A stretch of 64,000 bases of DNA from an uncultured virus (IMG/VR IMGVR_UViG_3300044637_002122) (IMGVR_UViG_3300044637_002122); one strand, 5' to 3'. Counted from the first letter of the stretch, positions 1-13,970 are shown. The notes: generated from the sequence alone by a model not told the origin. A program made the numbers and translations.

Positions 1-3000
1 CCGGAAGCGGTGACCTTGCTGCGCTTGAACCAGGCCCTGAACTCCGGCGTCTCGGTGCGCGGGTCGCGCTCGCGGCTCAGCCGCGCATCGCCTGCCCCCG
101 ACTTATCAACCACCACCTTGGCCGGGAACGACTTTTTCCCAATGTGCTGCAGGGCGTCAAAGCGATGGGCGCCTTCAAGGATGTAATGGTCCTCGCCATC
201 AAACACCACGATCAGCGGCGCTATCTCGCCAGACTCCTCAATGTCTGCTGCCAGCTTGCGGGTGCGTGCCGTCTGGGGGTCTGGGCCGCTAAAGAGGTCA
301 AACGGAACTTCGCGGATCCCTGGCAGGACTTCGTAGTTAGTCAGGGACGCTTCAATGCTCCCATAGTTCGGCACGCCGTCACGCACAACGAGGCCATCAA
401 CTTTGTCGCCGGCCATTGGCAGGGCGATGGCCCTCTCGCGGCTGAACAGCGGCATGCCGCCGGAGGCCTTGTCGCGCATCTCGTCGGTGATGAGGAAGGC
501 CGGCGCGATGACGGGGTCGCTGTCGGCGATCTTGACCATCTCCGCCTTTGCCTCTGCCCTTGTCGCGTGGCCGGAGGAGACCTGCTCTCCGGTGGCGCGC
601 CAGATGACGGCATAGCCGCCATTGCCGTCGTCGCCAACGCGGTAAGAGTCGAGGGGCGTCGCGTCGGCGCCCGGCAGCGTGACCTTGGTCATCCCCTCCC
701 CGCCCATCTTCTTCACCAGCGCACTGGCGGCCTGGGGGACGATCTTGTCGTAGAAGGCCTTCATGCCTTCGCCGCCGACTTTGAGGTCGAGGCCGCGGTA
801 CGTGGCCGTCCATCGCTTGCCACGCTCGGCAACGATCTTCTTGGCGATCTCCTTTCCGACGTAGTCCTCCAGGCGGCCCTCGGGCACGTCGTCGGCGATC
901 TTTTGGGAGACGCCGTCGATTCGGTTTCGAGCTGTCAGGGAATACTTGTCATCTGACCTTGACCAGACGAGCTCGTCGACCTGCTTGCTCAGGTCATACC
1001 GATCCGCGCTCTGCTCCCCATTCACAAACGCCACCGCGTCGTAGCCTTCTGTGGCGGCCATCGCGATGACGCGCTTCAGGGCGAGGTTGAGCCACTTGGT
1101 GGTGTCGTCGATGAACGGCATGCGCGGCACGCCACCGCTGTTGATCTTCTTCTCGCGGACGATGTACTCGCGCGCAGCCTGCTCGCTGGCGTGCCGCGAC
1201 TTCGGGATCTGGAAGACGTTGTCGGGGGTCTTGAGGTAGTAGAAGGTGTCGGGCAGCGGTCCGTCGGTCGGCTGCACGTCTTCGAGCTTGTAGCTGTCGA
1301 TGAAGCCTTTCTTGCGAACATCGGCGCCTGCGTCGGACTGGAGCTCTTCCACGAACAACGTGCGCCGGCCCTCGGCATCAACTCGATCGTTAAGGCGGAC
1401 GTGGGCGAGGACGTTCTTCTGGTCCCAGTGGCTACTCCTGTAGCTGGCAGGCTCCGTGAACTGCATCATGGCGAGCAGAGAGCGAACGCCTGCGCGGGCC
1501 TCCTCCTCTGTGTCGCCAACGCCTCGCAGCTCGCGGCCGCCGGGCGTCTTGTAGGTGGCCTCAAAGTCGTATACGCCGGTGTCCTTGCGGCGAACCACGA
1601 TGTCCTTCTCGTAGGGCGAAAGGTCGCGCTTCGGCTCCGGCAGCGTCAGCAGCACCTCCCTGTAGGCAGTGCCGCCGGGGAGGGTGTATTGGCTAAAGTC
1701 GCTGACGCCGATGCTTTTGCCAACCGGGGATGTCACCTCCTCCACCCGCACCCCACCCTCTGCCAGGTACGCGCCGATCTCCTCCTTCGAGACCTTCTCC
1801 TTGCCCTTGAGCCTGAGGAAGTCTTCGATGCCGGACCAGGTGATCTCGTCCTGCTTCACGCCGAGCTTGCTGGCGTTGGCCTTGAGCCACTGGGCCCACT
1901 GCGGGGCGGCCATGTTGTCCAGGCGCGCGGGGACGCCTTCGATGGCGCGGGCGAGTTGGCTGTAGTACCAGGGGCGCTCGGTGGAGCGGATGATCTGCGG
2001 CCCTTCGTCGGCGTCATACAGCTCGAACGCCGGCACCGACGAGAGGCCAGCCCTCTTTGCCGCCTCGACGCGGTGATTGCCGTCAAGGATGTTGCCCTCG
2101 GAGTCGATGAAAATAGGCGGAATCTTGCTGTCAAATGGGCTCTCGTTAAACATGGCGACGACAAGCTCATCGACCCTGCCCTCGTCGACATCATTGCTTG
2201 GCTCTAGTGTGCCGACGTCGACCATTTCGTAGTCGCGCGTAAGTCTCTGGCCAAAATCAACGCCGAAGCTGGTTCTGAATTGCTCGCGCGCGCGACGCAA
2301 TGTGCTGTCAAGGTAGGCGCCGCCGAAGTTGGCGTCGCGCTCGGCGGAGCGGCGGATGTCCCGCCCCGCGTCGCCTTGGCTCAGCCCATCATCCCCGCGC
2401 ACCGTCAGAAGCGCAGGGTCGTCGAAGACGTACGACATCGACCAGCCGCCACCCGGCACAGGGTCTGGGAACGCGACCGCGTCGTAGCCCGCCGCGAACA
2501 GCTCGTCCATCAGGGCGTCTTGGAATCGGCTGTTGGCCCCGTACAGCTCTCCGGTTGCGCCGGTCACCGTCTCAAGGAAGGTGTCGAAGTCCTCGTACCC
2601 GTAGTCCTCGCCGATGTCGGCGAACACGCGGCGCAGCGCCTTGGTCTCGCGCGGGCCGATGTCTTCCGGGCCGAGCCAAAGCATGTTCTTGGGCTTGGCC
2701 TCAACGCGCATCAGCTTGTCGCCGTACTTGCGCGCGGTCTCCTCTTGGTCTGTTAGGTAGATGTGCTTCGCGGTGCGTGCTTTGGTCTTGTCGAACTGCT
2801 TGATTTCGACGTCGCTGCCGTGGTACAGGCGGATGGGCTCGCCGCCTGCGAGCTTGCGCTCTACGCTGCGGCGGATGTCGGGGTCGTTGGGGTCGAAGGT
2901 GCCGCGGTTGCCGGTGGCGCTCTTGATCTGCTCTGGGCGGAAGGCGACGTACTGATCCTGCACGCCACCAGCATCGTAGTGATTTTTCAGAATCACCCCA

Positions 3001-3797
3001 TCGTGGCCGCCATCGCGTGCGCGCTTGATCGCTGCAACGCGCCCTAGCCGGTCGCCCTTAAAGTCCACGACAAGCGGGTTCTGTAGCGACAGGAAAACCG
3101 GCATCACGCTGCCAATCTCGGGAGCGTTGAAGTTTCCTTCCGGATCAACGCCAGCGTAGGCAGCAGCCACAGCGGGGTCTGGAGAAAAGAAGATGCCGCG
3201 CTCGCCAGAAGCCTTGTTCAAGCCGGTCTTGAACGCATCAAAGTCCGCATTGGTCCCGTGGTACACAACCAGCGGCCTACCATCGGCGCCCACCACCTTG
3301 CTGTCGCCAAACCAGCGCTTGAACTCAGGCGTCTCCGTGACGTCGCGCGCGCGGCTAGCTCGGGCGCCGCCGCGTTCGTCGATCACCGGCACCAGCTTGA
3401 TGCCAAGCTCCTTGGCGGCCACCGCCCGATGCCTGCCATCCTCTTTGCCATCGCTGCGGATGTGCAGAGGGTCGAGCTTGCGCCCCGACAGGATGTGCTG
3501 CTTCAGGTCTTCGATGTTGTCGCGAGATGCGCCGTCGATGTCCAGCGGGCGCACGCTGGCCAAGAACTCGTCGGGAGACATCATCCGCGGCTTGATGCCG
3601 GTTTCTTCGTAGCGCTCGCCGGCCGGCGCCAGTGGGTACTGCAAATCACGCTCGGCGCTCGACCGCGCATCATTCGCCGCCCCCCGCAGGTACTCCAGCC
3701 CACCCGCCACGAGCCAGGCCTTGAAGGCCGCTTGGCCGGTAAGGACGGTCTTCTTGCCATCGGGGGCGGTGAAGCTGTAGGTGCAGGTCTGTGCCAT
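1..3797 (-). CDS. Giant polyvalent virion/ejection protein 2 (>1265 aa, runs off left edge): ParB-like / ART / ART / ParB-like / large conserved polyvalent-type domain / ParB-like / ART(start)
   Basis: Absent from the ORF track because no stop occurs in the window. Manual translation from ATG at 3797 (MAQTCTYSF...) stays open to base 1. ParB/Srx-like motifs: DGRHRAVAA, LDGNHRVEAA, LEGAHRFDAL. ART-PolyVal-like motifs: TPEFKRWFGDSKVV..PLVVYHGT..GIFFS..QNP..FRPEQIKS and LYHGS..HIYLT..GYDAV. Confidence 0.88.
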   Translation of the reverse strand, partial: MAQTCTYSFTAPDGKKTVLTGQAAFKAWLVAGGLEYLRGAANDARSSAERDLQYPLAPAGERYEETGIKPRMMSPDEFLASVRPLDIDGASRDNIEDLKQHILSGRKLDPLHIRSDGKEDGRHRAVAAKELGIKLVPVIDERGGARASRARDVTETPEFKRWFGDSKVVGADGRPLVVYHGTNADFDAFKTGLNKASGERGIFFSPDPAVAAAYAGVDPEGNFNAPEIGSVMPVFLSLQNPLVVDFKGDRLGRVAAIKRARDGGHDGVILKNHYDAGGVQDQYVAFRPEQIKSATGNRGTFDPNDPDIRRSVERKLAGGEPIRLYHGSDVEIKQFDKTKARTAKHIYLTDQEETARKYGDKLMRVEAKPKNMLWLGPEDIGPRETKALRRVFADIGEDYGYEDFDTFLETVTGATGELYGANSRFQDALMDELFAAGYDAVAFPDPVPGGGWSMSYVFDDPALLTVRGDDGLSQGDAGRDIRRSAERDANFGGAYLDSTLRRAREQFRTSFGVDFGQRLTRDYEMVDVGTLEPSNDVDEGRVDELVVAMFNESPFDSKIPPIFIDSEGNILDGNHRVEAAKRAGLSSVPAFELYDADEGPQIIRSTERPWYYSQLARAIEGVPARLDNMAAPQWAQWLKANASKLGVKQDEITWSGIEDFLRLKGKEKVSKEEIGAYLAEGGVRVEEVTSPVGKSIGVSDFSQYTLPGGTAYREVLLTLPEPKRDLSPYEKDIVVRRKDTGVYDFEATYKTPGGRELRGVGDTEEEARAGVRSLLAMMQFTEPASYRSSHWDQKNVLAHVRLNDRVDAEGRRTLFVEELQSDAGADVRKKGFIDSYKLEDVQPTDGPLPDTFYYLKTPDNVFQIPKSRHASEQAAREYIVREKKINSGGVPRMPFIDDTTKWLNLALKRVIAMAATEGYDAVAFVNGEQSADRYDLSKQVDELVWSRSDDKYSLTARNRIDGVSQKIADDVPEGRLEDYVGKEIAKKIVAERGKRWTATYRGLDLKVGGEGMKAFYDKIVPQAASALVKKMGGEGMTKVTLPGADATPLDSYRVGDDGNGGYAVIWRATGEQVSSGHATRAEAKAEMVKIADSDPVIAPAFLITDEMRDKASGGMPLFSRERAIALPMAGDKVDGLVVRDGVPNYGSIEASLTNYEVLPGIREVPFDLFSGPDPQTARTRKLAADIEESGEIAPLIVVFDGEDHYILEGAHRFDALQHIGKKSFPAKVVVDKSGAGDARLSRERDPRTETPEFRAWFKRSKVTAS

Positions 3798-3800
3798 GGA

Positions 3801-6800
3801 TTAGTCGCAGTTGATGCCCAGAACTTGTGACGTCTCAAGCTCGTCGAGGATGTCCAAGAAGTCGCGCTCGATCTCTTGGATTTTGGCCGAAAGCGGGTGC
3901 GCCGCGGCGGCCGCCTTTGCGGACTTGCGGGCCCCGGGAGAGCTGCGCATGTCTTCGAAGATCTTCACCAGGTCGGCGGGCGGCGAAGGCGGCGCAGACG
4001 GGCCTTGAACCGCATCCTCGGCGCGGCCCTCGGTCCAGGTCCAATCGGGCATGAGACCGGTCTTCTGATCGGCGAAGACCGTGTCCGCGACCTTGGCCGT
4101 GCGGTTCTTTTCGCCGTGGGGGCCGTAGTTCAAGAACGAATTCTGGCCGCGGGTCTCGCTGGTGATGGCGCCCACCGCGGGGCCCGTGAAGAGCCGGACG
4201 TGGGCCTGCCAGGCGTTTTCTTCTCCGTCGGCGCGGAAGCCGGCGCCCTCCAGGCCGTGACCGAAGGCGTCATGAACTGCCCTGAACAAATCGTTGACCA
4301 GCACGCGCTTCTTCTGGCCGTCCGGCGAGCCGAAGCCCCACTCCAGGCCGGCGTCGGCCAGTAGCGGGTTGGCCGCAGGGTCGAAGTCGCTCGTGCCGAA
4401 GCCGGCCGCGGTCGGGAAGACGGCCATGCGCTGGTTGGCGCGCAGGTCGCGCATCGCGTTCCACGGGTTGCCGGCGTACGGGTCGGCTTCCGGGTCCATG
4501 AACCAGAACTTGTAGCCCGCGCCCACCAGGGCGTCGTACTGCGCGCGCGTCTGCTGGATGAGGTCTTGGTACGCAGCCTTGACCGCGGGGTCTTGCGGCG
4601 CGTGCGGCATCGCGTCGTAGGCCTCGGCGATGCGCTTGGCGCGCTCGGGGTCGACCTTGACGTACTCCGCCTGGCGACGGAGCTGGATGCCCCTGCTGGC
4701 GGCGTACCGCTCGGCTACTTCGACGAGTCGCGGGTCGGGGCCGGTTGCGCCTGCGATAGACGGCGCGCCCGCAAGCGGCGCAAGGCTTCGGCCCTCATCC
4801 CCTCGCTCTCCGTCTCGGGCTCGGCTGCGGCGCGCAGAGGCGCCGGCACGCCGGCCAGAATCTCCGCCGTCAGCCGCGGAATCCCCTGCGGGTACTCCAT
4901 CCGCAGCCAGGTCTCCATCGTCAGCGGCCGGTTCATCTTCAACATACGCGCCAGGGTCGCGTCCCGCCCAGCTAGGGGCTTCAATGCCTCCAGCAAGTTC
5001 GAGGACTTGTTTTCGGGCGTTTTCATAACTCAGGCGTCCTTTCTGGAATTGGGTCCACACGCCGTCGACTGCTTCGACGTTGCGCCGCTGGGCCTTGAAG
5101 GTGGGCACGAACAGGCCGCGCACAGCCTCCCAGGCGATCGACTGCATCTCACGCGGCAGGATGCCACGCTCTGCGGCTGCGCGGCGGTAGGCTTCCTCGT
5201 AGAGTGCGTACGTCCCTTCGAGGCCTGCGTGCGCGCTCTTCGGGCCGCCGAAGTTGTGCATCACCTCGATCGAATTGCCAGAAAGCGGTCGCAGCAGCGC
5301 GGCCGCCACAGCGTGCGTGTCGATCGTGACGTGCCCGTTCGGGCTGTTCGGCACGAGGATGTTGTTGTAGAAGTTGCGAACCTTGTGCTTGCGGCCAAGC
5401 TGCGCGCTGATGTTCTCAAACGACCCGTTGTCGAAGACAGAGACAGCCTTCGCGATGGTGCTGTTGCCGCCCCACGCGACGCGGCCGAGCGTGCCGTCCT
5501 TCGTGCGCGCCTCGGCCACGAAGTCACCCTCCGGCGAGACGATGTAGAACGAACTCGGGTTGTGAGCCTGGTCGTAGACGCGGAGCCACATCGCGCGCAG
5601 GTAGGCGTCATCAAGGTCCTGCAGCGTCTGGCCGCGGATCGCGTCGATGTCCTCCTGGTAGGCCTCTTTGCCGAAGATCCTGGCGGAGGTCTCGTCCATC
5701 TGCTTCGACCAGCGGAAGGCCTGCCGGTCGGTCATGATGTCCGCTACGCGGTTGGCCAGGCTCACATTCATGAACCAGTCCTTCTGCGGACTCAGCACGG
5801 CCAGGATGCCGGCAGCCTGCGCGTCGCTGATGCTGTACTTACGAGACCAGCGCTCGGCGATCGCCCTGGCGCCGTCGTACCACAGCTTGCTGCGGTTGCG
5901 CGTGTCGGCTGGCACCTGGTCGTGCAGCCACAGCAGGTTCTCGACCATCTGGCGAACCGTGCGCTCGAGCTTCTTCTCGGGCGCGTTGGCGGTCGCGGCG
6001 GCGCGGTAGTTCGGGTAGCCTTCGACCAGCTCCGACACGGCTGAGAGCCACTTGCTCTGGCCAAGGCCCGAGGCAAAGTCGCTGATCAGCAGGTCGCGTC
6101 GAGAGTCTTCTGGCGCGAAGTCCTTCGTCGGCTTGGCGTACGGCTCGCGCGTGCTGACTTCAAATCCGTGCACACGCTCACGCGGCTCGCGCGCAACGCT
6201 GCGCGTGATGTCCGGATCGGTGGCGTCGAAGGTGCCGCGGTTAAAGACGGACTTAATCTGCTCGGGGCGGAATGCGAGGTATGTGACTCGCCCCCCTCCC
6301 TCATTTGCGATCACTCCGTCGTACCCGAGCGGGCTCAGCTGCTCTTCAGTCGAAAGCCCTGGCCGGTCATTGTTGGCCTGAGCCATGATGGCCCTGCCCT
6401 CCGGCGTGTTCACGTCGAGAGGGTTTTGCAGCGCGAGGTAGACGGGGTAGACGGTGTCCCCTCGTCCGCCGCCGCCCTCCTCGGCAAATTGACTAGCCAG
6501 CCCTGGGGACTCAGAGAACCAGCCGGCCCCATCAACTCCCCGCCTGAAACTTCGGATGTTTGGAGAGCCGCTGCCGTGGTACACCGCCAGAGGCCGGCCC
6601 CGGCTGTCCGCCACCTTCGAGTTGCCGAACCAGCGCTTGAACTCGGGCGCCTCAGTTACGTCGCGAACAGCGCTGCGGCGGATGTCATCCTCATCGGCGC
6701 TGTACGTGCTGTCGTTGAAGTCGGCGCTCTTGACCTGGTTGGGCTCGAAAGCCACGAAGACGTCGGATGCCTCGTACCAGCCGCCGCCGCCACCGCCATC

Positions 6801-9800
6801 GTCCGTCACCTGGCGAATGATGGCGCCGTCGTTCTTGCTGCGACGAGCTTCGCGCACCACGCTGTCAGTGGTCTCGTAGTGATCCTGGGCCGGCTCGATG
6901 TTGCCGCCCTTGCTCATTACCAGAGAAAAGGCGTCGTCGCGGTCTTCGAAGTAGCCGCGGCCGTCGTCGGCGTAGAGCTGCTCGCCGTCGTCGTCGACGA
7001 CCATGTACTGGCCGTTGCGGCTGCCGTCCCAGTTGGCGCCCTCGAAGTCAGACTCTTGCGGGTTGCGGATGTTGATGAAGAGGGCGTAGATGCCAGCCAC
7101 CGGGTCGCGATACTCGCCGTCCTCCTCGATGTCGCCAGGGCCAATGTCGCGCGCGCGGCCGCGGTGCACGTATGTGCGCGCCACGCCTCGCTCGTCAGTC
7201 GTGAAGATGCCAAGGTCTCCGCGCTGGCTTCCGCCGGGCCGCGAGAACTCGCTGAAGCCGCCCTTGTCGGTGCCGTGGTAAACGACCAGCGGCTCGCCGT
7301 TGCGGCCGACGACCTTGGAGACCTCGCCCTTGTCGTCGGCCCAGACCCCGCCTCGGCGGCCGGCGAACTTCTCAAAGTCGCCAAACCACTTCTTGAAGCT
7401 CGGCGTACGAACGTGCAGCCACTGGCGTTCAGTCAAGCGCGTAGCGGTGCCGTCTGGCGCCTTGAGCCACTTGTCGGTGCCCTCGTACTGCTTGCGCACC
7501 GCGGCCACCTCTTCGGCCGGCGTCGACAGGCGCTCCTTGCTGAAGCGCAGGTCGGAGCCGATGCGCGCCATCTCGGCGTTGGCCTGTTCGCGGCTGTCGG
7601 CCGGGAAGCGCAGCATGCCCGCGCGCAGCGTGGCGCCAGGGATGTTGCCCACATCGATGAGGTCGATCTCCTTCGAGCTCGGAGCGGCCTTGATGGTCTC
7701 GGGCACACCGGTCGAGATCGGGCCGGCGATCTTCGGGTTCGCGATGGGCTTGGCCGGCATGCTCTTGGCCGCGTCGCCGATGACGACCGCGAAGCCCTGC
7801 CCGGTCTCGTGCTTCTTGACAAAGTAGCCCGCGTAGCCGGCATCGAGGATGCGGCTCTCGGTGCCGTTCAGGTCGCCGCTGTTCCAGAGCTTCTCGGCGT
7901 TGGCCTTGGCGTCGTAGAGCTTCGGCAGCTCGACCTCGTGCGCGTAGCCGCCGACGCCAGCCTCGGGGCGCACGCCATTGCCCTCGTCCACGTAGAAGTA
8001 GACGCGGGTCTTGAGGCGCGGGTCATCGCTCAGCGCCAGGCGCTCGGCCTCGAGGCCCTTCAGGCCGGTGCCGTAGTAGGCGCCGTTGATGGCGGTGAGC
8101 TGCTTCTTGCTGAAGTGGATGCCGCGCTCGGGGGACTTGGTGACCTCACTGTCGTCCACGGGCGTGACATGACTGCCATCCGGCACCACGACAGAGATAC
8201 TGCCGCTGTCTTCAGCGACATTGCTGTAGTAGTAGCCGCGACGAGCCGTTCCGCGCTTCTTGGCTGCGGACATGTACCCATTGGCCTTGAAGTCCTCATG
8301 CGGCTGGAACTTGAAATTCGACATCTCAGTGTTGAGTCTGAAAGGGCGAACACTGGGGCGAACGCTCATTGGCATTGGCGTGCCGTCGGCATACTTCAAC
8401 TCAACTTGCGGCAGGTAGTCTTCATCCGGGACCGGGTTGCCTCGCGAACCGGCGTTTAGGCCGGTGGTCAGGAAGTAGCCGCGCTCCTCTTGCAGGCGCT
8501 TGAGCGTCTTCTTTCCAGCCAGAAGGGTTGACCCATACTCTCGGGCGCCGTCCCACTCTCCGGTCGCTGGAACTCCAATTCGAGCCTCTAGCGCCTGCGT
8601 TGCGGCGAGCTTGGTTCCAAGGTGAAGGCCAGTTGAACCGCCCCTTAAGTCGCCGCTTGGAGACCCGTGCCAATAAATCGTTTTGTCGTCGGTCTTTCGG
8701 GCCGGACTCATGGACACGCCATTTACCGAGCGCAGCACCTCCGCCTGCATCCCGGCCTTCGACTTGCCGCTCTCCTTGAGGTAAGCCGCCAGGCCGTCGC
8801 GGTAGGCCGCCCTGATGGCATCCATGTCGCTGATGAAGCGGTCTGCGCGGAAGCGCGGGCCCTTCACTGCGGCCACGGCCATGTCGATCAGGCCCTGCAG
8901 CTGCGCGATCAGGCGGGCGATGGTGCCCTTGGCGTCCTTGCCGTTGTCGGCATAGATTTTTGCGAATACTTCGCGCCAGAAGGACTGATCGGCCATCAAG
9001 TTGCCGCCGAGGTCGGAGACCAGCTCCTCGAGCTCGCCGTCGCGCTCTTCGCTCAGCGCACCGTCGCCGCGGGCATCGGCCTCTTCGGCGCCGTAGTAGT
9101 CGCGGCGGAAGCCCTTGGGGTTCTTCACGCGCGTCTTCACGACAGCCGCGATGGCGTCCCAGGCCTGCGGGTTGGTCTGGCGCAGCGTGTGCAGGAACTC
9201 GTGCCCGAAGACGGACAGCGGGTTGATCGTCGACACCGTGTTCAGGTAGATGGTGTCGGGGTCGGCTGGCCTCACGAAGCCGTCGCCCGGGCGCTCGCCG
9301 TTGACGTCTTCGAAGAACTGCACGCGCTTGCCCATCGCCGCGCCGATGGCGCTGATGAGTGCTGCGGACTTGCGGCTGATGCGGCGGGCCTTGCCATCGC
9401 GCTCGGGCGATTCGGTCTCGGCGAGCTGCGACACGTCGGCCCGCTTGAACTCGACGTTCTTGCCGTCCATGCGGACGGTGAAGGTGGTGCCAGGCGCGCG
9501 GTCGGGATCGACGGAAAGTGCCGGCGTTACGCCGGCTTGATTAGCGCCTGACGCAACTCCATCCCCTTGTCCAGGCGCTTCCGCAGCGTATCGGGATGAA
9601 TCCCCACCTTGCGCGCCCACGCCTTGAGTGGAAGCGTCTCGCCGTCCAGAGTTAGGTTGCGCGGAGGCGCCCCCCGAGGCATCAAGCCGGGCTCGAGGGC
9701 TTCGCTCGCCGAAAGGCCCTGCTGCACCCTCTTGTAGATCCGACCGGCCGGAATTCCCAGCTCGCGAGCCCACTCCGCCAATGTCATCGTCTTGCCGCGG

Positions 9801-12800
9801 TGCGTCAGCGCGTGCACGAAGCCCGGCCTGTTCTGACTCTGCTCCATCCTGGTTGCCCAGCGTACGTTGCCCGGCTCGTACCCTTTGTCCCCCTTGATTC
9901 GATCCAGGGAGTGCGCCGGAGTCGGCCTCGGCCCCGCGTCCCGCAGAAACGCCGCGAAGCTCTCCGCCCACTCCTCGTTCATCTTGATCCCCTTCGCCCC
10001 GTACTCCCGGTACGCCTGGTCCTTGGGATCTGCGCAGCGACTTCTCGCCTTTCGCCAGTTGTTGTACCCCGGCGTCCGGGATATTCCGCGCTCGCGCATC
10101 AATTACTCCTGCTGGCTTCTTGGCTGCATCCGACCGAGCCCACGACTTGAACTCGTCGACAGACATCTGCGTCACATCGCCCCGGCGGCGCGGCCCGGAT
10201 CCGTCGGAGAAGTGCGCGTCGTAGATGCGGATGGCCTCGTCTCGACTTTGAGCGCCGACGACCGATTTGGTTTCATCGAACGTGCCGTCATCGTTGTATT
10301 GATCGATGACAAACACCGGGGCGCCGGCCGTCGGCGATGCGTGCAAGTAGATGTCCACGCCGTCGCCATCGGCGCCAAGGGTTCGGCGGATATAGCCGTA
10401 GTGGGCCTTCATGCGAACGGACCACTTCTTGCCGCCGCGGTCCGTGCCGCTTCGAACGCTGCCCTCGGGGTTCTCGATGGCGATGTCCAGTCCATCGAAC
10501 CGAAGCATGCCGAGTTTGTAGTTACCGGCCGCCTTCTGCGCCGGCGTCGGCTCCTTGCGGTCGTTCTGCGGGCTCGTGGCCGCGGCATGCGCGCGCGCGT
10601 CGACCATGGCCTTGACCGCGGCGCGCGCCAGGGCGGCATCGGCGCGGCCGCTCAGGCGGACCTCGTCGCCGGTTCGCGAATTGCGAATGAAGAACACGCC
10701 GTCGCGGCGCTCGACGGTCTCGTAGCCCTGGTCGGCCAGGGCGTCGAGCTGGCGGCGGCGCTTGCGGATGACTGCGGGTTCGGCTGGGCTGCCGGCTTCA
10801 CTGCGCGGCGCAGTTTCAGCAGGTGCTGAAGAGGCGCGCTCAGCTGACTTGGTGGCCGCAGACGGCTGCCGGCGCATGATGGCGGCACCATCGTCCCTGC
10901 CGACGGTGCGGAACCCGAGCGACTCGTAGAAGCGCTCAAGGCGCGCGTCATCAGAGAAGCCTGTGGCGTCGAACGCCATCAGCTCAACCGGCAGGCCGGC
11001 CTCGTCTGCACGCGCAAGCAGGGACTGCATGGCGCGCCGGAAGGCGCCGCGGCCGCGGCTCTCGGGGCGGACGGCCGCGTCGTTGATCGTCACCTTGTCG
11101 TCGAGCACGTTGTACTCGATGGTGGCGCCGTCTTGCTCAAGCGTGTTGGTCTCACCTTCGCGCCACGGCGCCCTCTCGGCTGACCGACGAGGCTCCCGCA
11201 TCTGCTGCAGCTGCAGCTTGTCGGTGGCGCTCAGGTTGGCCGGGTTGACCGCAGCGTCCTGCAGAACGCGCATCTGCTCGGCGGTCATGCGCGCCCGGGC
11301 GGCGTCGACCACGGCCTTCTGCTCGGCGGTGCGCAGCGCGGGGATGGTCTTCAGCGCGGCGATCACGTCGTCGGCCGGCGGCGCGCCGGCGGGCGCCTTG
11401 GGCTGCGCCTGGTCGCGCTTGGCGGCCGCGGCGGCGCGCTCTTCGGCCAGGCGCTTCATGCGGCTGTCGCTGCGGGCCTGCTGCTCGGCGGCGGCCTGGG
11501 CGGCGACGTCCTGCCGGCCCGGCACCACCGTCTCGCGCGGCCGGCGGCCCAGGGCGATGCCCGTGGCCTGCGTCAGGCGCTCGTCGGTGGACGGCGGCGG
11601 CGCCAGGCTCTCGTCGATGCGGTCGTAGGGCTTGCCCAGGCCGGCCTCGGCGAAGATCTGCGCCTCGGCCGGGCTGGCCACGCCGCCGCGCTCCTCGACG
11701 TTGCGCAGGGCGCGGTCGATCACGGCCTGGCGCGGTTCGTCCTGGCGTTTGCTGGCATCGACCTGGCCACCAAGGGCGGCGGCCTCGAGGCGCGCCTGCT
11801 CGGCCGGCGTTACAGCCTGAGGCCTGTTCTCGCCGCCGACAGCCTGTGCGCTGTTGGCCGGCCTGGCGCCGAGGCGCATCTCCAGGTTCGTCTTGCGCTG
11901 GGCGTTAATCTGGTCGCGCTCGAACTGGGTGCCGGCCTGCTGGGCGCGCGCCGTCAGGGCTGCGTCGCGATCCACGCCGGTGCGGAGCTGGCCGATGCCA
12001 GGGCGCGCGCCAGGCTGGCGCACATCGCCCTGCGTGGCGCCGGTGATCTCGTCGATGTTCGGCTCGACCGTGGGCGCCGGGTTCGCGCCGGCCCACTGCA
12101 GGCCGGTCTCGATGCGGGTCAGGGCCTGCTCGCGCGCGGTCGGCTGGGCGCTCTTGCTGGAGGCGACGGCCAGGTCCTTGAGCAGGTCCTTCGCGGTGTA
12201 GTCGGAGCCCTCGGCGCGCAGGGCGTCGAGCACGCCCGGGTTGAGGGCGGACTTGATGGCGGCGAGGCGCGGGGCGATCTCGTCGGGCTGGGCGCCCGGC
12301 GTGGCCTCGCGCGAAGCATTGAGCGCCTCGTACTCCTTGCGCTGCTCGGGCGTGAAGATGCCGCCCTGCTGGCCGATGGCCTCAAGCTCGGCTAGGCGGG
12401 CGGCTGGGTCGGGCGGGGCCACGGGCGCCACAGGCGGAGACGCCGCCGTGCCAGCGACGGCCGACTTCGACAGCGGGCTGTTGGGCTCCTGAGCCTTCTG
12501 GATGACGGGGGCCATCTCGGGCGACTGCAGCGCCCCGGCGACGGCGCCGACGCCAGCGCCGCCAACGAAGCCCATGGTCGCCGCTCCGGCAGCGCCCTTG
12601 GTCGAGTCGATCTCGGGGTTGTACTGCGCCGCGGCGCGCTGGCCCTCGATGACGGTGGCCGCCTCTTCGACGGCTTCGGTGCTGCCCTCGATGCCGCCGG
12701 TGGCGAGCGCGTTGCCGACGCGGGTGCGGCCGGCGCCAGGCAGGCCGGCCAGCAGGCGCTCGGCGCCGATGACGCCGGTGGCGGCGCCAAGGATCGCTGG

Positions 12801-13970
12801 CAGCACGCGCGCCTGGGCGGCCGCCTTCTGGGCGATGGCCTCCTTGATCTGGGCCGGATCGGTGATCCCCTGGCGGATCAGCTGCTGAGCATCGGGGCTC
12901 TGCAGAATGACGTCGTCCGGGGACTTCATGACCAGCTCGTAGGCTGTGCCGGCTGCGTCGCCGCCGCCCATGGTTGCGCCGGCCACCGCGCCGCCCGCCA
13001 GGCCAGCTCTTGCAGCCCCGCGCGCGCCGACACCAACCGCCTGCGCAAAGCTCGACGCGCCCTTGACGGCCGCGCCGGGCAGCACAAAGGAGCCGGCAAC
13101 CTGGGCCGCTGTCAGCGCCGGGTTGCGCGCCATGTAGCCGAGCATCGTGGTGACCTCGGCGCTGGCGTCCGGGGCGGCCTCCATGTCGGCAGCCAGGCGC
13201 TCCTTCTCGGCGCGCACGACGTCGCTCTGCTTCTCGACGCCGGACTGGATGAACTCTTCAACGGCCTGAGAGAACTGATTGCCGGGCGAGACGAAGCTGC
13301 CAACCGCGCCGGCGGCACCGGCCACAGCGTTGCCGAACTCGATGACCGTGTCGTTGATGGCCTCGAATACGCCGCGGCTTCGCGTGGGCGCCGGCGGCCG
13401 CGGATCGAGCATCTCGCTGCGCGGGCCGCCGAACCTGCTGGTCGGCTGCTGCGGCGGTGCTGCGGCAAGACTGCCGCCCATCGCGGTCGCGGCCATCCTG
13501 GCGGCCGCAACGCCCTTGTTGACGTAGTCCGGGTCTTCCGCGTAGCCGCCCTTCTTGAGCTCGGCGAAGTACCGGCCTGCGTCAGAGCCAGATCCGGCCG
13601 CCGTGCGGTAGCGCCTTGCGATCAGGCCCGCGAAGTCCTCCCCGAAGCTGTCCGGCGACTCGTAGGCCCGGTACGCGTCGCGCGACCCGGTCATGTTGTC
13701 GGTGGCCTGCGGGCCGGCGCCGGTGAAGTCCTTGATGTTGCCCAGGTTGTTCGTGCCCGGGATGACGCTGCGCCCCCAGCCCGTCTCAAGCCCCCACTGC
13801 CCCAGCAGCACCGCCGGCTCGACGCCGATCTTGCCGCCGACGCGCTGCGCCACGGGGCCGTACTGCTGCACGAATCCCTCGACGCCGCCGGCCTGGGAGG
13901 CGGGACGCGGTTGCGATGCACCAAGCTCTTTGGCGGACTCGGCGATCAGGCTCAGGATGGGATCTTGCAT
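3801..13970 (-). CDS. Giant polyvalent virion/ejection protein 1 (3389 aa): GH73/FlgJ-like glucosaminidase, Gly/Ala-rich membrane segment, GNAT, InPase, zincin metallopeptidase, 4 ART-like domains, HhH-glycosylase-like domain, HDxxGH domain
   Basis: N-terminal QWGLETGWG..NNLGNIK..GGYAEDPDY (GH73). RPESRGRG..RFYESLGF (GNAT). AGNYKLG..IAIENPEGSVRSG..HYGYIRRTLGADGDGVD (InPase). HEFLH at 9189-9203 with downstream EELVSD (zincin). WHGS, GIHFS, YHGT, YHGS (ART-like). WYDGA..AVLSPQKDW..KVRNFYNN..VTIDTH..MQSIAWE. NDLFRAVHDAFGH..GEENAW..ETRGQNS. Lies directly after the ejection-protein genes. Confidence 0.9.
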   Translation of the reverse strand: MQDPILSLIAESAKELGASQPRPASQAGGVEGFVQQYGPVAQRVGGKIGVEPAVLLGQWGLETGWGRSVIPGTNNLGNIKDFTGAGPQATDNMTGSRDAYRAYESPDSFGEDFAGLIARRYRTAAGSGSDAGRYFAELKKGGYAEDPDYVNKGVAAARMAATAMGGSLAAAPPQQPTSRFGGPRSEMLDPRPPAPTRSRGVFEAINDTVIEFGNAVAGAAGAVGSFVSPGNQFSQAVEEFIQSGVEKQSDVVRAEKERLAADMEAAPDASAEVTTMLGYMARNPALTAAQVAGSFVLPGAAVKGASSFAQAVGVGARGAARAGLAGGAVAGATMGGGDAAGTAYELVMKSPDDVILQSPDAQQLIRQGITDPAQIKEAIAQKAAAQARVLPAILGAATGVIGAERLLAGLPGAGRTRVGNALATGGIEGSTEAVEEAATVIEGQRAAAQYNPEIDSTKGAAGAATMGFVGGAGVGAVAGALQSPEMAPVIQKAQEPNSPLSKSAVAGTAASPPVAPVAPPDPAARLAELEAIGQQGGIFTPEQRKEYEALNASREATPGAQPDEIAPRLAAIKSALNPGVLDALRAEGSDYTAKDLLKDLAVASSKSAQPTAREQALTRIETGLQWAGANPAPTVEPNIDEITGATQGDVRQPGARPGIGQLRTGVDRDAALTARAQQAGTQFERDQINAQRKTNLEMRLGARPANSAQAVGGENRPQAVTPAEQARLEAAALGGQVDASKRQDEPRQAVIDRALRNVEERGGVASPAEAQIFAEAGLGKPYDRIDESLAPPPSTDERLTQATGIALGRRPRETVVPGRQDVAAQAAAEQQARSDSRMKRLAEERAAAAAKRDQAQPKAPAGAPPADDVIAALKTIPALRTAEQKAVVDAARARMTAEQMRVLQDAAVNPANLSATDKLQLQQMREPRRSAERAPWREGETNTLEQDGATIEYNVLDDKVTINDAAVRPESRGRGAFRRAMQSLLARADEAGLPVELMAFDATGFSDDARLERFYESLGFRTVGRDDGAAIMRRQPSAATKSAERASSAPAETAPRSEAGSPAEPAVIRKRRRQLDALADQGYETVERRDGVFFIRNSRTGDEVRLSGRADAALARAAVKAMVDARAHAAATSPQNDRKEPTPAQKAAGNYKLGMLRFDGLDIAIENPEGSVRSGTDRGGKKWSVRMKAHYGYIRRTLGADGDGVDIYLHASPTAGAPVFVIDQYNDDGTFDETKSVVGAQSRDEAIRIYDAHFSDGSGPRRRGDVTQMSVDEFKSWARSDAAKKPAGVIDARARNIPDAGVQQLAKGEKSLRRSQGPGVPGVRGEGDQDERGVGGELRGVSAGRGAEADSGALPGSNQGGQRVRAGQRTLGNQDGAESEQAGLRARADAPRQDDDIGGVGSRAGNSGRSDLQEGAAGPFGERSPRARLDASGGASAQPNSGRRDASTQGVGAQGGDSSRYAAEAPGQGDGVASGANQAGVTPALSVDPDRAPGTTFTVRMDGKNVEFKRADVSQLAETESPERDGKARRISRKSAALISAIGAAMGKRVQFFEDVNGERPGDGFVRPADPDTIYLNTVSTINPLSVFGHEFLHTLRQTNPQAWDAIAAVVKTRVKNPKGFRRDYYGAEEADARGDGALSEERDGELEELVSDLGGNLMADQSFWREVFAKIYADNGKDAKGTIARLIAQLQGLIDMAVAAVKGPRFRADRFISDMDAIRAAYRDGLAAYLKESGKSKAGMQAEVLRSVNGVSMSPARKTDDKTIYWHGSPSGDLRGGSTGLHLGTKLAATQALEARIGVPATGEWDGAREYGSTLLAGKKTLKRLQEERGYFLTTGLNAGSRGNPVPDEDYLPQVELKYADGTPMPMSVRPSVRPFRLNTEMSNFKFQPHEDFKANGYMSAAKKRGTARRGYYYSNVAEDSGSISVVVPDGSHVTPVDDSEVTKSPERGIHFSKKQLTAINGAYYGTGLKGLEAERLALSDDPRLKTRVYFYVDEGNGVRPEAGVGGYAHEVELPKLYDAKANAEKLWNSGDLNGTESRILDAGYAGYFVKKHETGQGFAVVIGDAAKSMPAKPIANPKIAGPISTGVPETIKAAPSSKEIDLIDVGNIPGATLRAGMLRFPADSREQANAEMARIGSDLRFSKERLSTPAEEVAAVRKQYEGTDKWLKAPDGTATRLTERQWLHVRTPSFKKWFGDFEKFAGRRGGVWADDKGEVSKVVGRNGEPLVVYHGTDKGGFSEFSRPGGSQRGDLGIFTTDERGVARTYVHRGRARDIGPGDIEEDGEYRDPVAGIYALFINIRNPQESDFEGANWDGSRNGQYMVVDDDGEQLYADDGRGYFEDRDDAFSLVMSKGGNIEPAQDHYETTDSVVREARRSKNDGAIIRQVTDDGGGGGGWYEASDVFVAFEPNQVKSADFNDSTYSADEDDIRRSAVRDVTEAPEFKRWFGNSKVADSRGRPLAVYHGSGSPNIRSFRRGVDGAGWFSESPGLASQFAEEGGGGRGDTVYPVYLALQNPLDVNTPEGRAIMAQANNDRPGLSTEEQLSPLGYDGVIANEGGGRVTYLAFRPEQIKSVFNRGTFDATDPDITRSVAREPRERVHGFEVSTREPYAKPTKDFAPEDSRRDLLISDFASGLGQSKWLSAVSELVEGYPNYRAAATANAPEKKLERTVRQMVENLLWLHDQVPADTRNRSKLWYDGARAIAERWSRKYSISDAQAAGILAVLSPQKDWFMNVSLANRVADIMTDRQAFRWSKQMDETSARIFGKEAYQEDIDAIRGQTLQDLDDAYLRAMWLRVYDQAHNPSSFYIVSPEGDFVAEARTKDGTLGRVAWGGNSTIAKAVSVFDNGSFENISAQLGRKHKVRNFYNNILVPNSPNGHVTIDTHAVAAALLRPLSGNSIEVMHNFGGPKSAHAGLEGTYALYEEAYRRAAAERGILPREMQSIAWEAVRGLFVPTFKAQRRNVEAVDGVWTQFQKGRLSYENARKQVLELAGGIEAPSWAGRDPGAYVEDEPAADDGDLAADGVPAGDSAADGGDSGRRAGASARRSRARDGERGDEGRSLAPLAGAPSIAGATGPDPRLVEVAERYAASRGIQLRRQAEYVKVDPERAKRIAEAYDAMPHAPQDPAVKAAYQDLIQQTRAQYDALVGAGYKFWFMDPEADPYAGNPWNAMRDLRANQRMAVFPTAAGFGTSDFDPAANPLLADAGLEWGFGSPDGQKKRVLVNDLFRAVHDAFGHGLEGAGFRADGEENAWQAHVRLFTGPAVGAITSETRGQNSFLNYGPHGEKNRTAKVADTVFADQKTGLMPDWTWTEGRAEDAVQGPSAPPSPPADLVKIFEDMRSSPGARKSAKAAAAAHPLSAKIQEIERDFLDILDELETSQVLGINCD
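4715..5026 (-). CDS. Small protein (103 aa) nested in the +1 frame of the giant ORF
   Basis: AAAGGA lies 10 nt upstream of the ATG. The sequence is protein-like and amphipathic (LARMLKMNRPLTMETWLRMEYPQGIPRLTAEILAGVPAPLR), while the host frame here reads as a D/G/A/R low-complexity linker. Confidence 0.55.
   Translation of the reverse strand: MKTPENKSSNLLEALKPLAGRDATLARMLKMNRPLTMETWLRMEYPQGIPRLTAEILAGVPAPLRAAAEPETESEGMRAEALRRLRARRLSQAQPAPTRDSSK
9527..10099 (-). CDS. HNH-type homing endonuclease with two C-terminal HTH-like repeats, nested in the +1 frame of the giant ORF
   Basis: AGGAG (10106-10110), 6 nt, then ATG at 10099. Motifs WRKARSRC..YGAKGI..EW..SFAAF..D.GPRP..SLDRI..GYEPGNVRWAT..Q..N are typical of phage HNH endonucleases; followed by repeated TLAEWARELGI / PLKAWARKVGI modules. 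Confidence 0.85.
   Translation of the reverse strand: MRERGISRTPGYNNWRKARSRCADPKDQAYREYGAKGIKMNEEWAESFAAFLRDAGPRPTPAHSLDRIKGDKGYEPGNVRWATRMEQSQNRPGFVHALTHRGKTMTLAEWARELGIPAGRIYKRVQQGLSASEALEPGLMPRGAPPRNLTLDGETLPLKAWARKVGIHPDTLRKRLDKGMELRQALIKPA

Follow-up and report, generated by a model that had tools for sequence, protein, structure and literature searches.

In a 64,000-nt stretch of DNA from an uncultured virus (IMG/VR IMGVR_UViG_3300044637_002122), hereafter the window, from whose first letter all coordinates are counted, a gene for a predicted nuclease-like protein lies inside a 3389-codon open reading frame (ORF) that encodes a giant protein of the polyvalent, DarB-like kind. The nested gene is an insertion into the linker that follows the InPase domain of the host protein, and the host frame stays open across it to a degree that is non-random (P from 0.0025 to 0.10, depending on the null). 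We propose that a homing-endonuclease-like gene was inserted in such a way that the host frame reads through it as a linker, that it is initiated internally, and that it is not spliced out, an arrangement that can be called “frame-riding”. We put the probability of this explanation at roughly 0.75.

The initial annotation of this DNA had described a 190-aa ORF with an AGGAG 6 nt before its ATG, lying wholly within the 3389-aa ORF on the same strand, and its coordinates are confirmed on the minus strand (Table 1). The nested frame is offset by +1 relative to the host frame ((13970-10099) mod 3 = 1), and an ORF listing stretches it upstream to a TTG at 10102. Translation of the host frame over the 573 nt of the nested gene meets zero stops, as had also been claimed. 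The resulting peptide, the “shadow” of the nested gene, consists to 83% of G/A/R/D/Q/S/P/E, and its W/F/Y/I/L/V/C/M share is 11.5%, compared with 27-28% in the flanking domains, which agrees with the earlier description of a G/A/R/D/Q-rich linker with few aromatics; it has no Pfam match, even at E<=5. The guanine-cytosine (GC) content by host-frame codon position is 0.67, 0.51, and 0.81 upstream of the insert, 0.83, 0.63, and 0.52 within it, and 0.66, 0.45, and 0.89 downstream. Because this pattern changes inside the insert, the coding signature switches to the nested frame exactly there, where GC at third positions of the nested frame is 0.82.

The nested gene starts where the initial annotation had placed it, just past the Pfam match to InPase (residues 1144-1278). 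The C-terminal end of this domain is a conserved ...W(A)KS(R)AAKKP motif, present in relatives as well, which stands immediately ahead of the insertion point; in the host protein, FKSWARSDAAKKPAGV begins at residue 1274. The Shine-Dalgarno (SD)-like AGGAG overlaps the host codons P-A-G-V, and KKPAG is found also in relatives that have no insert. Judged from these relatives, KKPAG, whose codons partly form the AGGAG, is native host sequence.

A search with the domain downstream of the insert returned 102 giant relatives, 54 of which hold both flanking domains. In 52 of the 54, InPase is joined to the next domain without the insert, the junction being bridged by a short linker or by an unrelated small domain, and the empty allele that the initial annotation had proposed to look for is the common form among them. 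For instance, InPase ends at residue 1186 of the insert-free protein P0008 and the next domain follows from 1187, while the junction of another insert-free protein, P0005, reads ...AMAVEPDRAPGTTFTVR. A hidden Markov model of the shadow peptide detected the insert in only two of the 102 relatives (P0006 and P0019). By comparison with the insert-free alleles, the insert corresponds to host residues ~1290-1483, essentially the nested ORF and its SD. These relatives, together with the open host frame, bear out the earlier suggestion that the insertion is tolerated as a low-complexity linker. Searches against phages gave just short matches to the region by blastn (5-8%) and no match to the downstream domain by tblastn. 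Many relatives (P0010-P0023, P0038-P0042, and others) carry in the same linker a conserved module of ~60 residues (…GQFATLEEAKAYLSQQRRANG…GLPLQ…DGSFGIA(I)KG…), and some have a further module of ~80 residues between InPase and the next domain. The junction is thus a general insertion hotspot.

The initial annotation attributed the open host frame to GC-rich third positions, which leave few stops in the shifted frame. As a statement about background this is true: among 191-codon stretches of real genes in the window, read in the same shifted frame, 826 of 8299 (10%) are open, with a mean of 2.95 stops. It is insufficient, however, to account for what is seen here. A host-frame stop needs a T at a third codon position of the nuclease gene, followed by AA, AG, or GA. 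Synonymous-codon shuffles of the window gene gave 4.5 expected stops, with a probability of zero stops of 0.0025, and when the null was modeled on how the phage's own genes use codons in context, 3.5 stops were expected and the probability was 0.025. T-ending codons occur at none of the 49 sites at risk, compared with 18 of 141 codons elsewhere (Fisher p 0.0034). In other loci where the family is nested, described below, the corresponding shuffle probabilities are 0.0046 (Gamede), 0.023 (GP4), 0.00125 (L044, which has 49% GC), and 0.026 (L212). Among non-nested homologues, the matching frame is open in one of 76 loci, apparently by chance, and in 2 of 83 cases in a second sample that served as a null only (a degenerate motif scan of viral contigs, whose 83 matches fall in 80 loci and include no case of nesting in a giant ORF). 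The window gene thus has no host-frame stop where 3.5 to 4.5 would be expected, and L044 shows the same at 49% GC, from which we conclude that stops were avoided or purged. In the remaining alternative frame there are six stops, and this frame was never open in the shuffles, which explains +1 as the workable offset.

The same numbers bear on another view of the locus, in which a free-standing endonuclease gene separates two genes that only look like one giant ORF, as reported for mobE in nrdA of phage Aeh1, and the open host frame is a chance by-product of high GC. The 10% background and the long spurious ORFs that are common in the window fit this view, as does the nearest database record, G001, in which the gene is split and the C-terminal part is called from M1501. 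The composition-specific nulls (P 0.0025-0.025) argue in the other direction, and so does the stop-free host frame itself, across which the N-terminal part must continue by default. Further, the frame is open also in Gamede, GP4, L044, and L212, seven proteins with the shadow (P0006, P0019, P0105-P0109) are called as single proteins, M1501 has no preceding SD, and the unbroken form occurs in contigs of two other studies. We therefore regard two separate genes as quite improbable.

The absence of an intron or intein, which had been claimed from inspection of the sequence, is upheld by the searches. In Rfam, with permissive filters over 8500-11200, there were four matches at E<=10 (E 0.11-3.9), none of them to an intron family, and Pfam found no Hint or Intein_splicing domain in the giant protein (P0002) or in the shadow peptide. 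There is hardly any inserted sequence besides the ORF and its SD, and no ribozyme core was seen. We consider it very improbable that the segment is removed after all, whether by an unrecognized intron, by an intein-like mechanism, or by proteolytic trimming of the linker by an HExxH domain; splicing, moreover, would not need an open frame. A nested nuclease gene does sit in a true intein in L044, where the shadow would be spliced out. As for proteolysis, polyvalent proteins have been proposed to be cut into units by their own metallopeptidase domains, as stated in the accessible text of Iyer et al. (2017; PMC5512222), and an HEFLH motif lies ~110 residues past the insert. This motif, at residue 1590, belongs to the “zincin” region that the initial annotation placed downstream. 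The domain, which may be a zincin-type peptidase, has no Pfam match, and this counts against trimming. Such trimming would in any case be compatible with the insertion that we propose.

Residues 2-189 of the nested protein match positions 5-188 of the 196 in the profile of PHROG 3377, named “HNH endonuclease” (E 6.8e-53), and tblastn found relatives in 1062 phage records; in the window, the nested gene is the single copy of this family. An AlphaFold2 model built with 51 homologues has a mean pLDDT (predicted local distance difference test) of 91.1 and consists of an N-terminal core (~residues 1-95) followed by two strand-strand-helix-helix repeats (97-134 and 148-185). As modeled, these repeats appear DNA-binding-like (helix-turn-helix-like), and VIA-align matches them to the domains with which I-TevI (Z 3.5) and I-HmuI (Z 3.0) bind DNA. 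In BFVD there were 102 matches at E<=0.001, the named ones mostly “HNH endonuclease”, and NCBIfam gave sub-threshold helix-turn-helix hits only. Across the family alignment of 51 sequences, R67 and N78 are invariant and N90 is present in 49. By homology, the nested ORF is a real gene whose predicted product is nuclease-like.

Besides the window, the Ralstonia phages Gamede and GP4 have a PHROG 3377 member (47% identity) at +1 inside their DarB-like genes, again with an open host frame and with flanking domains that differ from those in the window. In both records (L001 8965-9519 and L003 8965-9519) the nested gene has 184 codons and is introduced by AAGGAG-AAA-ATG; the RefSeq/GenBank annotation of the two phages gives the DarB-like coding sequence only, with the nested gene not annotated. 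Among the best 80 IMG/VR loci for the family, four are nested in a giant open frame (G001, GP4, Gamede, and L044). The loci L021, L071, and L081 were considered as fusions or nesting and were rejected, the long frames translating to GC-rich junk and being due to chance. The host gene in the IMG/VR locus L044 encodes DNA polymerase A (4191-7364), with the nested gene at 5968-6423, also at +1. This host gene carries a true intein (Pfam PF14890 Intein_splicing, E 2.6e-14), the central loop of which is merely the shadow of the +1 nuclease gene, which has its own AAAGGGG-ATG.

We also searched 1.84 billion representative proteins with the shadow peptide and obtained seven hits, which are necessarily open-frame cases and thus show recurrence, not selection. 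Five of the seven (P0006, P0105, P0106, P0108, and P0109) hold polyvalent-specific domains, and the other two (P0107 and P0110) have no Pfam match. Together with P0019, the shadow thus occurs in eight other polyvalent proteins. Taking carriers together, the insert follows InPase in P0006, P0019, and P0106, stands just before ART-PolyVal in P0109, and lies elsewhere in P0105, P0107, and P0108. The DNA of P0107 (L212) contains an intact +1 nuclease gene with AAAGG ahead of its ATG. The offset is +1 in all five nested loci that were read as DNA (the window, Gamede, GP4, L044, and L212). In gp60 of the actinophage Pacc40, the hidden ORF (L211 12082-12306) has an offset of +2, and the +1 rule of the five loci is therefore not universal for the family.

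Between Gamede and GP4, the nested gene differs at 23 of 555 positions. Of the differences within the first 430 nt, 9 are silent and 6 change an amino acid when read in the nuclease frame, whereas the host frame has 2 and 13 respectively, a pattern that shows purifying selection on the nuclease frame. Beyond residue ~143 the pattern of the frames is reversed, which suggests that the tail of the nested ORF in these two phages may be host sequence. The final ~40 codons of the nested gene in Gamede and GP4 resemble host-frame sequence.

In a quick maximum-likelihood tree computed from 61 rows of the flanking domains, the window and P0006 are sister carriers (SH-aLRT, a Shimodaira-Hasegawa-like approximate likelihood ratio test, 100) and the third carrier, P0019, lies deep in another clade of insert-free relatives, beside P0023. 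The well-supported branches force at least two changes, and the tree needs at least two gains at this junction. P0019 and its insert-free neighbor P0023 share 93% identity ahead of the junction and 97.8% past it, and the native 20-residue linker of P0023 is replaced by the insert in P0019. Of the last 25 residues upstream, seven differ by our own count, and at the protein level these differences look like a co-conversion tract. The existence of such a near-identical pair implies recent mobility of the family.

The explanation that we favor can be laid out as follows. A homing-endonuclease-like gene of the free-standing type (PHROG 3377) would have inserted in the short linker after InPase, on the same strand and one base off. 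The insert would not be removed; instead, ribosomes on the giant gene would pass through it in a frame that is -1 with respect to that of the nuclease, and this read-through would add ~192 residues of low complexity, probably a disordered linker, between two domains. Separate, low-level production of the nuclease would depend on internal initiation within the giant mRNA, at the AGGAG-ATG of the nested gene. Synonymous choices would be enough to avoid host-frame stops and leave the nuclease unchanged: since no such stop can arise without a T in the third position of a nuclease codon, stops can be avoided silently, which would explain the +1 offset in all five loci. We infer that both frames are translated, that the product is an active nuclease, and that it homes by cutting insert-free alleles; homing in particular would account for the same-site independent gains and for the near-identical pair with and without the insert.

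The nearest record to the window, G001 (IMG/VR, 37.7 kb), offers a variant of the same locus. It is 100% identical over 3.5 kb except for 58 missing nt, and the deletion joins host codon ~1285 in frame to nuclease residue 10 (…KSWARS-PGYNNW…). The N-terminal part then ends at the nuclease stop, so the giant gene is split and the C-terminal part (P0003) is the one called from M1501. There are 2 nt of microhomology at the deletion junction (L005 ~2960-2975). The full form, with the 58 nt in place, is spanned by Logan contigs from two other studies (X3 9891-10500 and X6 9883-10196, with 0 and 1 differences respectively), and the form in the window is therefore real and not an assembly quirk; the giant ORF, for which the initial annotation had named a break in read data as contrary evidence, is unbroken across the site in these other data. 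No Logan contig aligned to the window shows the deletion. Logan contigs of a further run, X4, stop on either side of the site and leave 10078-10150 uncovered, which may be coincidence or an assembly bubble and carries no evidential weight.

As G001 fuses InPase to the nuclease exactly in frame, it can be cited in favor of recoding, i.e., a programmed +1 shift near the junction that would make an InPase-nuclease fusion and turn the nuclease into a facultative domain of the virion protein. We saw no slippery or pause signal, although none was searched for. The nested gene has its own SD and ATG in the window, in Gamede, and in L212, and the shadow of the start codon, “DAR”, is kept in P0006 and P0019. 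All of this speaks against recoding, which we regard as extremely improbable.

Several observations weigh against the read-through insertion as we have set it out. By the loosest null, an open frame in the window alone has P ~0.10, and among GC-rich (>=0.60) non-nested homologues one of 21 is open by chance. With regard to the protein, the best solved-structure match found by VIA-align, the HNH restriction enzyme PacI, reaches a Z of only 5.7 (root-mean-square deviation 5.2, 95 residues aligned), no HNH model in Pfam matches the nested protein, PDB chain sequences give no match at E<=1, and Foldseek finds none in the PDB at E<=0.001. H63 is present in 30 of the 51 family sequences and no histidine is invariant. 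The earlier designation as an HNH-type endonuclease therefore has a weak basis, consisting of the name of PHROG 3377 and a fold match of low strength. A promoter scan of 9300-10700 gave 0 sites, and since no promoter-like site lies upstream, expression of the nested gene would hinge on internal initiation within a translated ORF. No RNA run is listed as containing the stretch. G001 has lost the SD and start codon of the nuclease, and continuity of the giant gene may not be essential, since a split form can be assembled. In the runs X5 and X6, three of four single-nucleotide polymorphisms in the nested gene alter the nuclease sequence but leave that of the host protein unchanged; the number is very small, but the nuclease may be decaying in this lineage.

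The last two observations also fit a decayed or domesticated passenger (the latter named as an alternative in the initial annotation), in which the nuclease would no longer be an active homing enzyme in this phage. The segment would then persist either because an imprecise deletion would disrupt the giant gene or because a function for the host has been acquired by the linker or by the DNA-binding protein. This reading is also favored by the shadow in P0006, which is ~42 residues shorter at its C-terminal end, the copies in Gamede and GP4, which lack the second helix-turn-helix repeat, and the lack of conservation of H63. Against this reading, the ORF in the window is intact and full-length relative to the PHROG profile, has an SD, and is predicted with a confident fold; the substitution pattern between Gamede and GP4 shows purifying selection in the nuclease frame, and the P0019/P0023 pair implies recent mobility of the family. 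On balance, we consider a passenger of this kind possible but unlikely.

A broader version of the read-through insertion, offered here tentatively and held to be doubtful as a whole, is that nucleases of the PHROG 3377 and Pacc40-gp60 type are a lineage specialized in frame-riding. Their targets would be polyvalent linkers (at least three kinds of junction), intein loops, and methylases, almost always at +1, the only offset at which silent changes in the nuclease could purge host-frame stops. Polyvalent proteins could dispense with the shadow, being processed into separate units in any case, and G001 would be an instance of domain capture by such a protein. If true, the 58-nt deletion would show how a nested selfish gene can become, in one step, a nuclease domain of a protein delivered with the virion.

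Table 1. Positions in the window of the host gene, the nested gene, and associated features.
Feature	Position	Strand	Basis or detail
Host gene, 3389-codon polyvalent (DarB-like) virion protein, predicted	3801..13970	minus	ORF reading, Pfam, PHROG
InPase domain, host residues 1144-1278	10137..10541	minus	Pfam PF18823, E 3.3e-46
58 nt absent from G001	10075..10132	minus	AGGAG, ATG, first 8 codons + 1 nt
Shine-Dalgarno-like AGGAG	10106..10110	minus	6 nt (TAATTG) before nested ATG
Nested nuclease-like gene, 190 codons + TAA	9527..10099	minus	ATG 10099, TAA 9529-9527, +1 frame
Shadow linker, host residues 1291-1482 (host-frame reading of nested gene)	9525..10100	minus	Translation
ATG of host residue M1501	9468..9470	minus	Start of separately called 1889-aa C-terminal part in G001 (P0003)
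HEFLH (HExxH) motif, domain downstream of insert	9189..9203	minus	Host residue 1590, ~110 residues past insert

Apart from InPase, the host protein has Pfam matches to Glucosaminidase (39-154), GNAT (950-1020), ART-PolyVal (2455-2577), and DUF7178, and it matches the DarB-like PHROG as well as other giant PHROG families. Genes for virion structural, tail fibre, and internal virion proteins lie upstream on the same strand. By its domain make-up, with many unrelated effector domains in one chain, the host product is a polyvalent protein in the sense of Iyer et al. (2017), and gene context alone suggests its packaging in the virion. A second giant ORF (window 3-3797, minus strand) of more than 1265 codons begins 3 nt past the stop of the host gene and runs off the window edge; it has ParB-like and polyvalent-type PHROG matches. 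Opposite the giant gene, on the plus strand at 4566-8459, and elsewhere in the window, there are spurious ORFs of up to 763 codons. Long opposite-strand ORFs of this kind are typical of GC-rich composition and call for caution in any ORF-based reading.

The nested gene can be compared with several known arrangements. The initial annotation presented insertion without an intron or intein as a new, third route for a selfish nuclease, but this route was published in February 2025 for DNA methylases of actinophages (Arsenault, Gosselin, and Gogarten, Genes 2025;16:178; PMC11855218). According to the accessible text of that article, out-of-frame HNH-like ORFs lie inside actinophage DNA methylase genes (the ShiLan domain and the Pacc40 gp60 insertion), the host frames are open, there is no intron or intein, the in-frame reading has no known fold, and the distribution is patchy; no ribosome-binding site was seen, leaderless GTG initiation was proposed, and the authors call the HNH assignment of the Pacc40 type less certain. 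Residues 12-88 of the window nuclease match the interior of Pacc40 gp60 with 44% identity (E 3.7e-16), and the product of Tiff81 gene 70 is matched with 41% identity (E 5.7e-31); gene 70 lies just upstream of the Tiff81 helicase gene and is presumably the draft “gp75” of that article. On these matches, the window nuclease belongs to the nuclease family of the Pacc40 gp60 insert.

As far as that text goes, the window resembles the methylase elements in having a same-strand nuclease-like ORF in an alternative frame of a stop-free host gene, without an intron or intein, with an in-frame reading of no known fold, and with a patchy distribution. It differs in its host, an inter-domain linker of a polyvalent virion protein instead of a methylase (a text search of PMC11855218 for “polyvalent” gives 0 occurrences), in its offset (+1, compared with +2 in Pacc40), in its canonical AGGAG-ATG where the described elements have no ribosome-binding site, and in its carriers, which are GC-rich freshwater and Ralstonia phages instead of actinophages.

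Another out-of-frame arrangement, as described in the available portion of a preprint, involves inteins with the homing endonuclease in a separate reading frame, the out-of-frame case being an endonuclease VII-like enzyme in frame 3 (Gosselin, Arsenault, and Gogarten, bioRxiv 10.1101/2025.01.02.630785). The likeness is that a free-standing nuclease gene appears to have invaded an insertion-tolerant coding stretch in another frame, and L044 is of that type. Unlike these inteins, the insert in the window has no splicing domain around it, and its shadow peptide would therefore stay in the protein unless cut out.

In phage Aeh1, a free-standing endonuclease gene, mobE, reportedly splits the host gene nrdA, a case for which the preprint cites Gibb and Edgell (2007). 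There, as in the window, a coding gene would have been invaded without intron or intein, and the invader would be of the HNH type and bring its own signals for translation. In Aeh1, nrdA is broken into two ORFs, whereas in the window the host frame continues, and only G001 resembles the split form.

The host itself agrees with the polyvalent proteins of phages described by Iyer et al. (J Bacteriol 2017; PMC5512222), as far as the accessible text describes them, in having InPase, ART-PolyVal, and a lysozyme-type domain within a virion gene block. The nested gene is not one of the domains of the polyvalent protein, and the word “homing” occurs 0 times in the accessible text of PMC5512222. We found no paper that places a nested element of this kind in a polyvalent protein, in a literature search that was short on subscription journals.

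Our analysis thus carries the mode of persistence described only in 2025, in which a selfish gene is kept with no RNA or protein splicing and the host reads through it, beyond the methylases of actinophages to giant polyvalent virion proteins encoded by Ralstonia phages and GC-rich phages of freshwater. Compared with the accessible text of PMC11855218, it adds a quantitative test of stop avoidance, a reason for the +1 offset in terms of codon positions, and independent gains at the same site, together with a canonical SD and a natural fusion/split variant (G001). Gene callers miss such nested genes, as in Gamede and GP4. It may be that “disordered linkers” of ~190 residues in giant phage proteins are shadows of hidden genes, and nested inserts could mark the inter-domain boundaries at which these proteins tolerate insertion.

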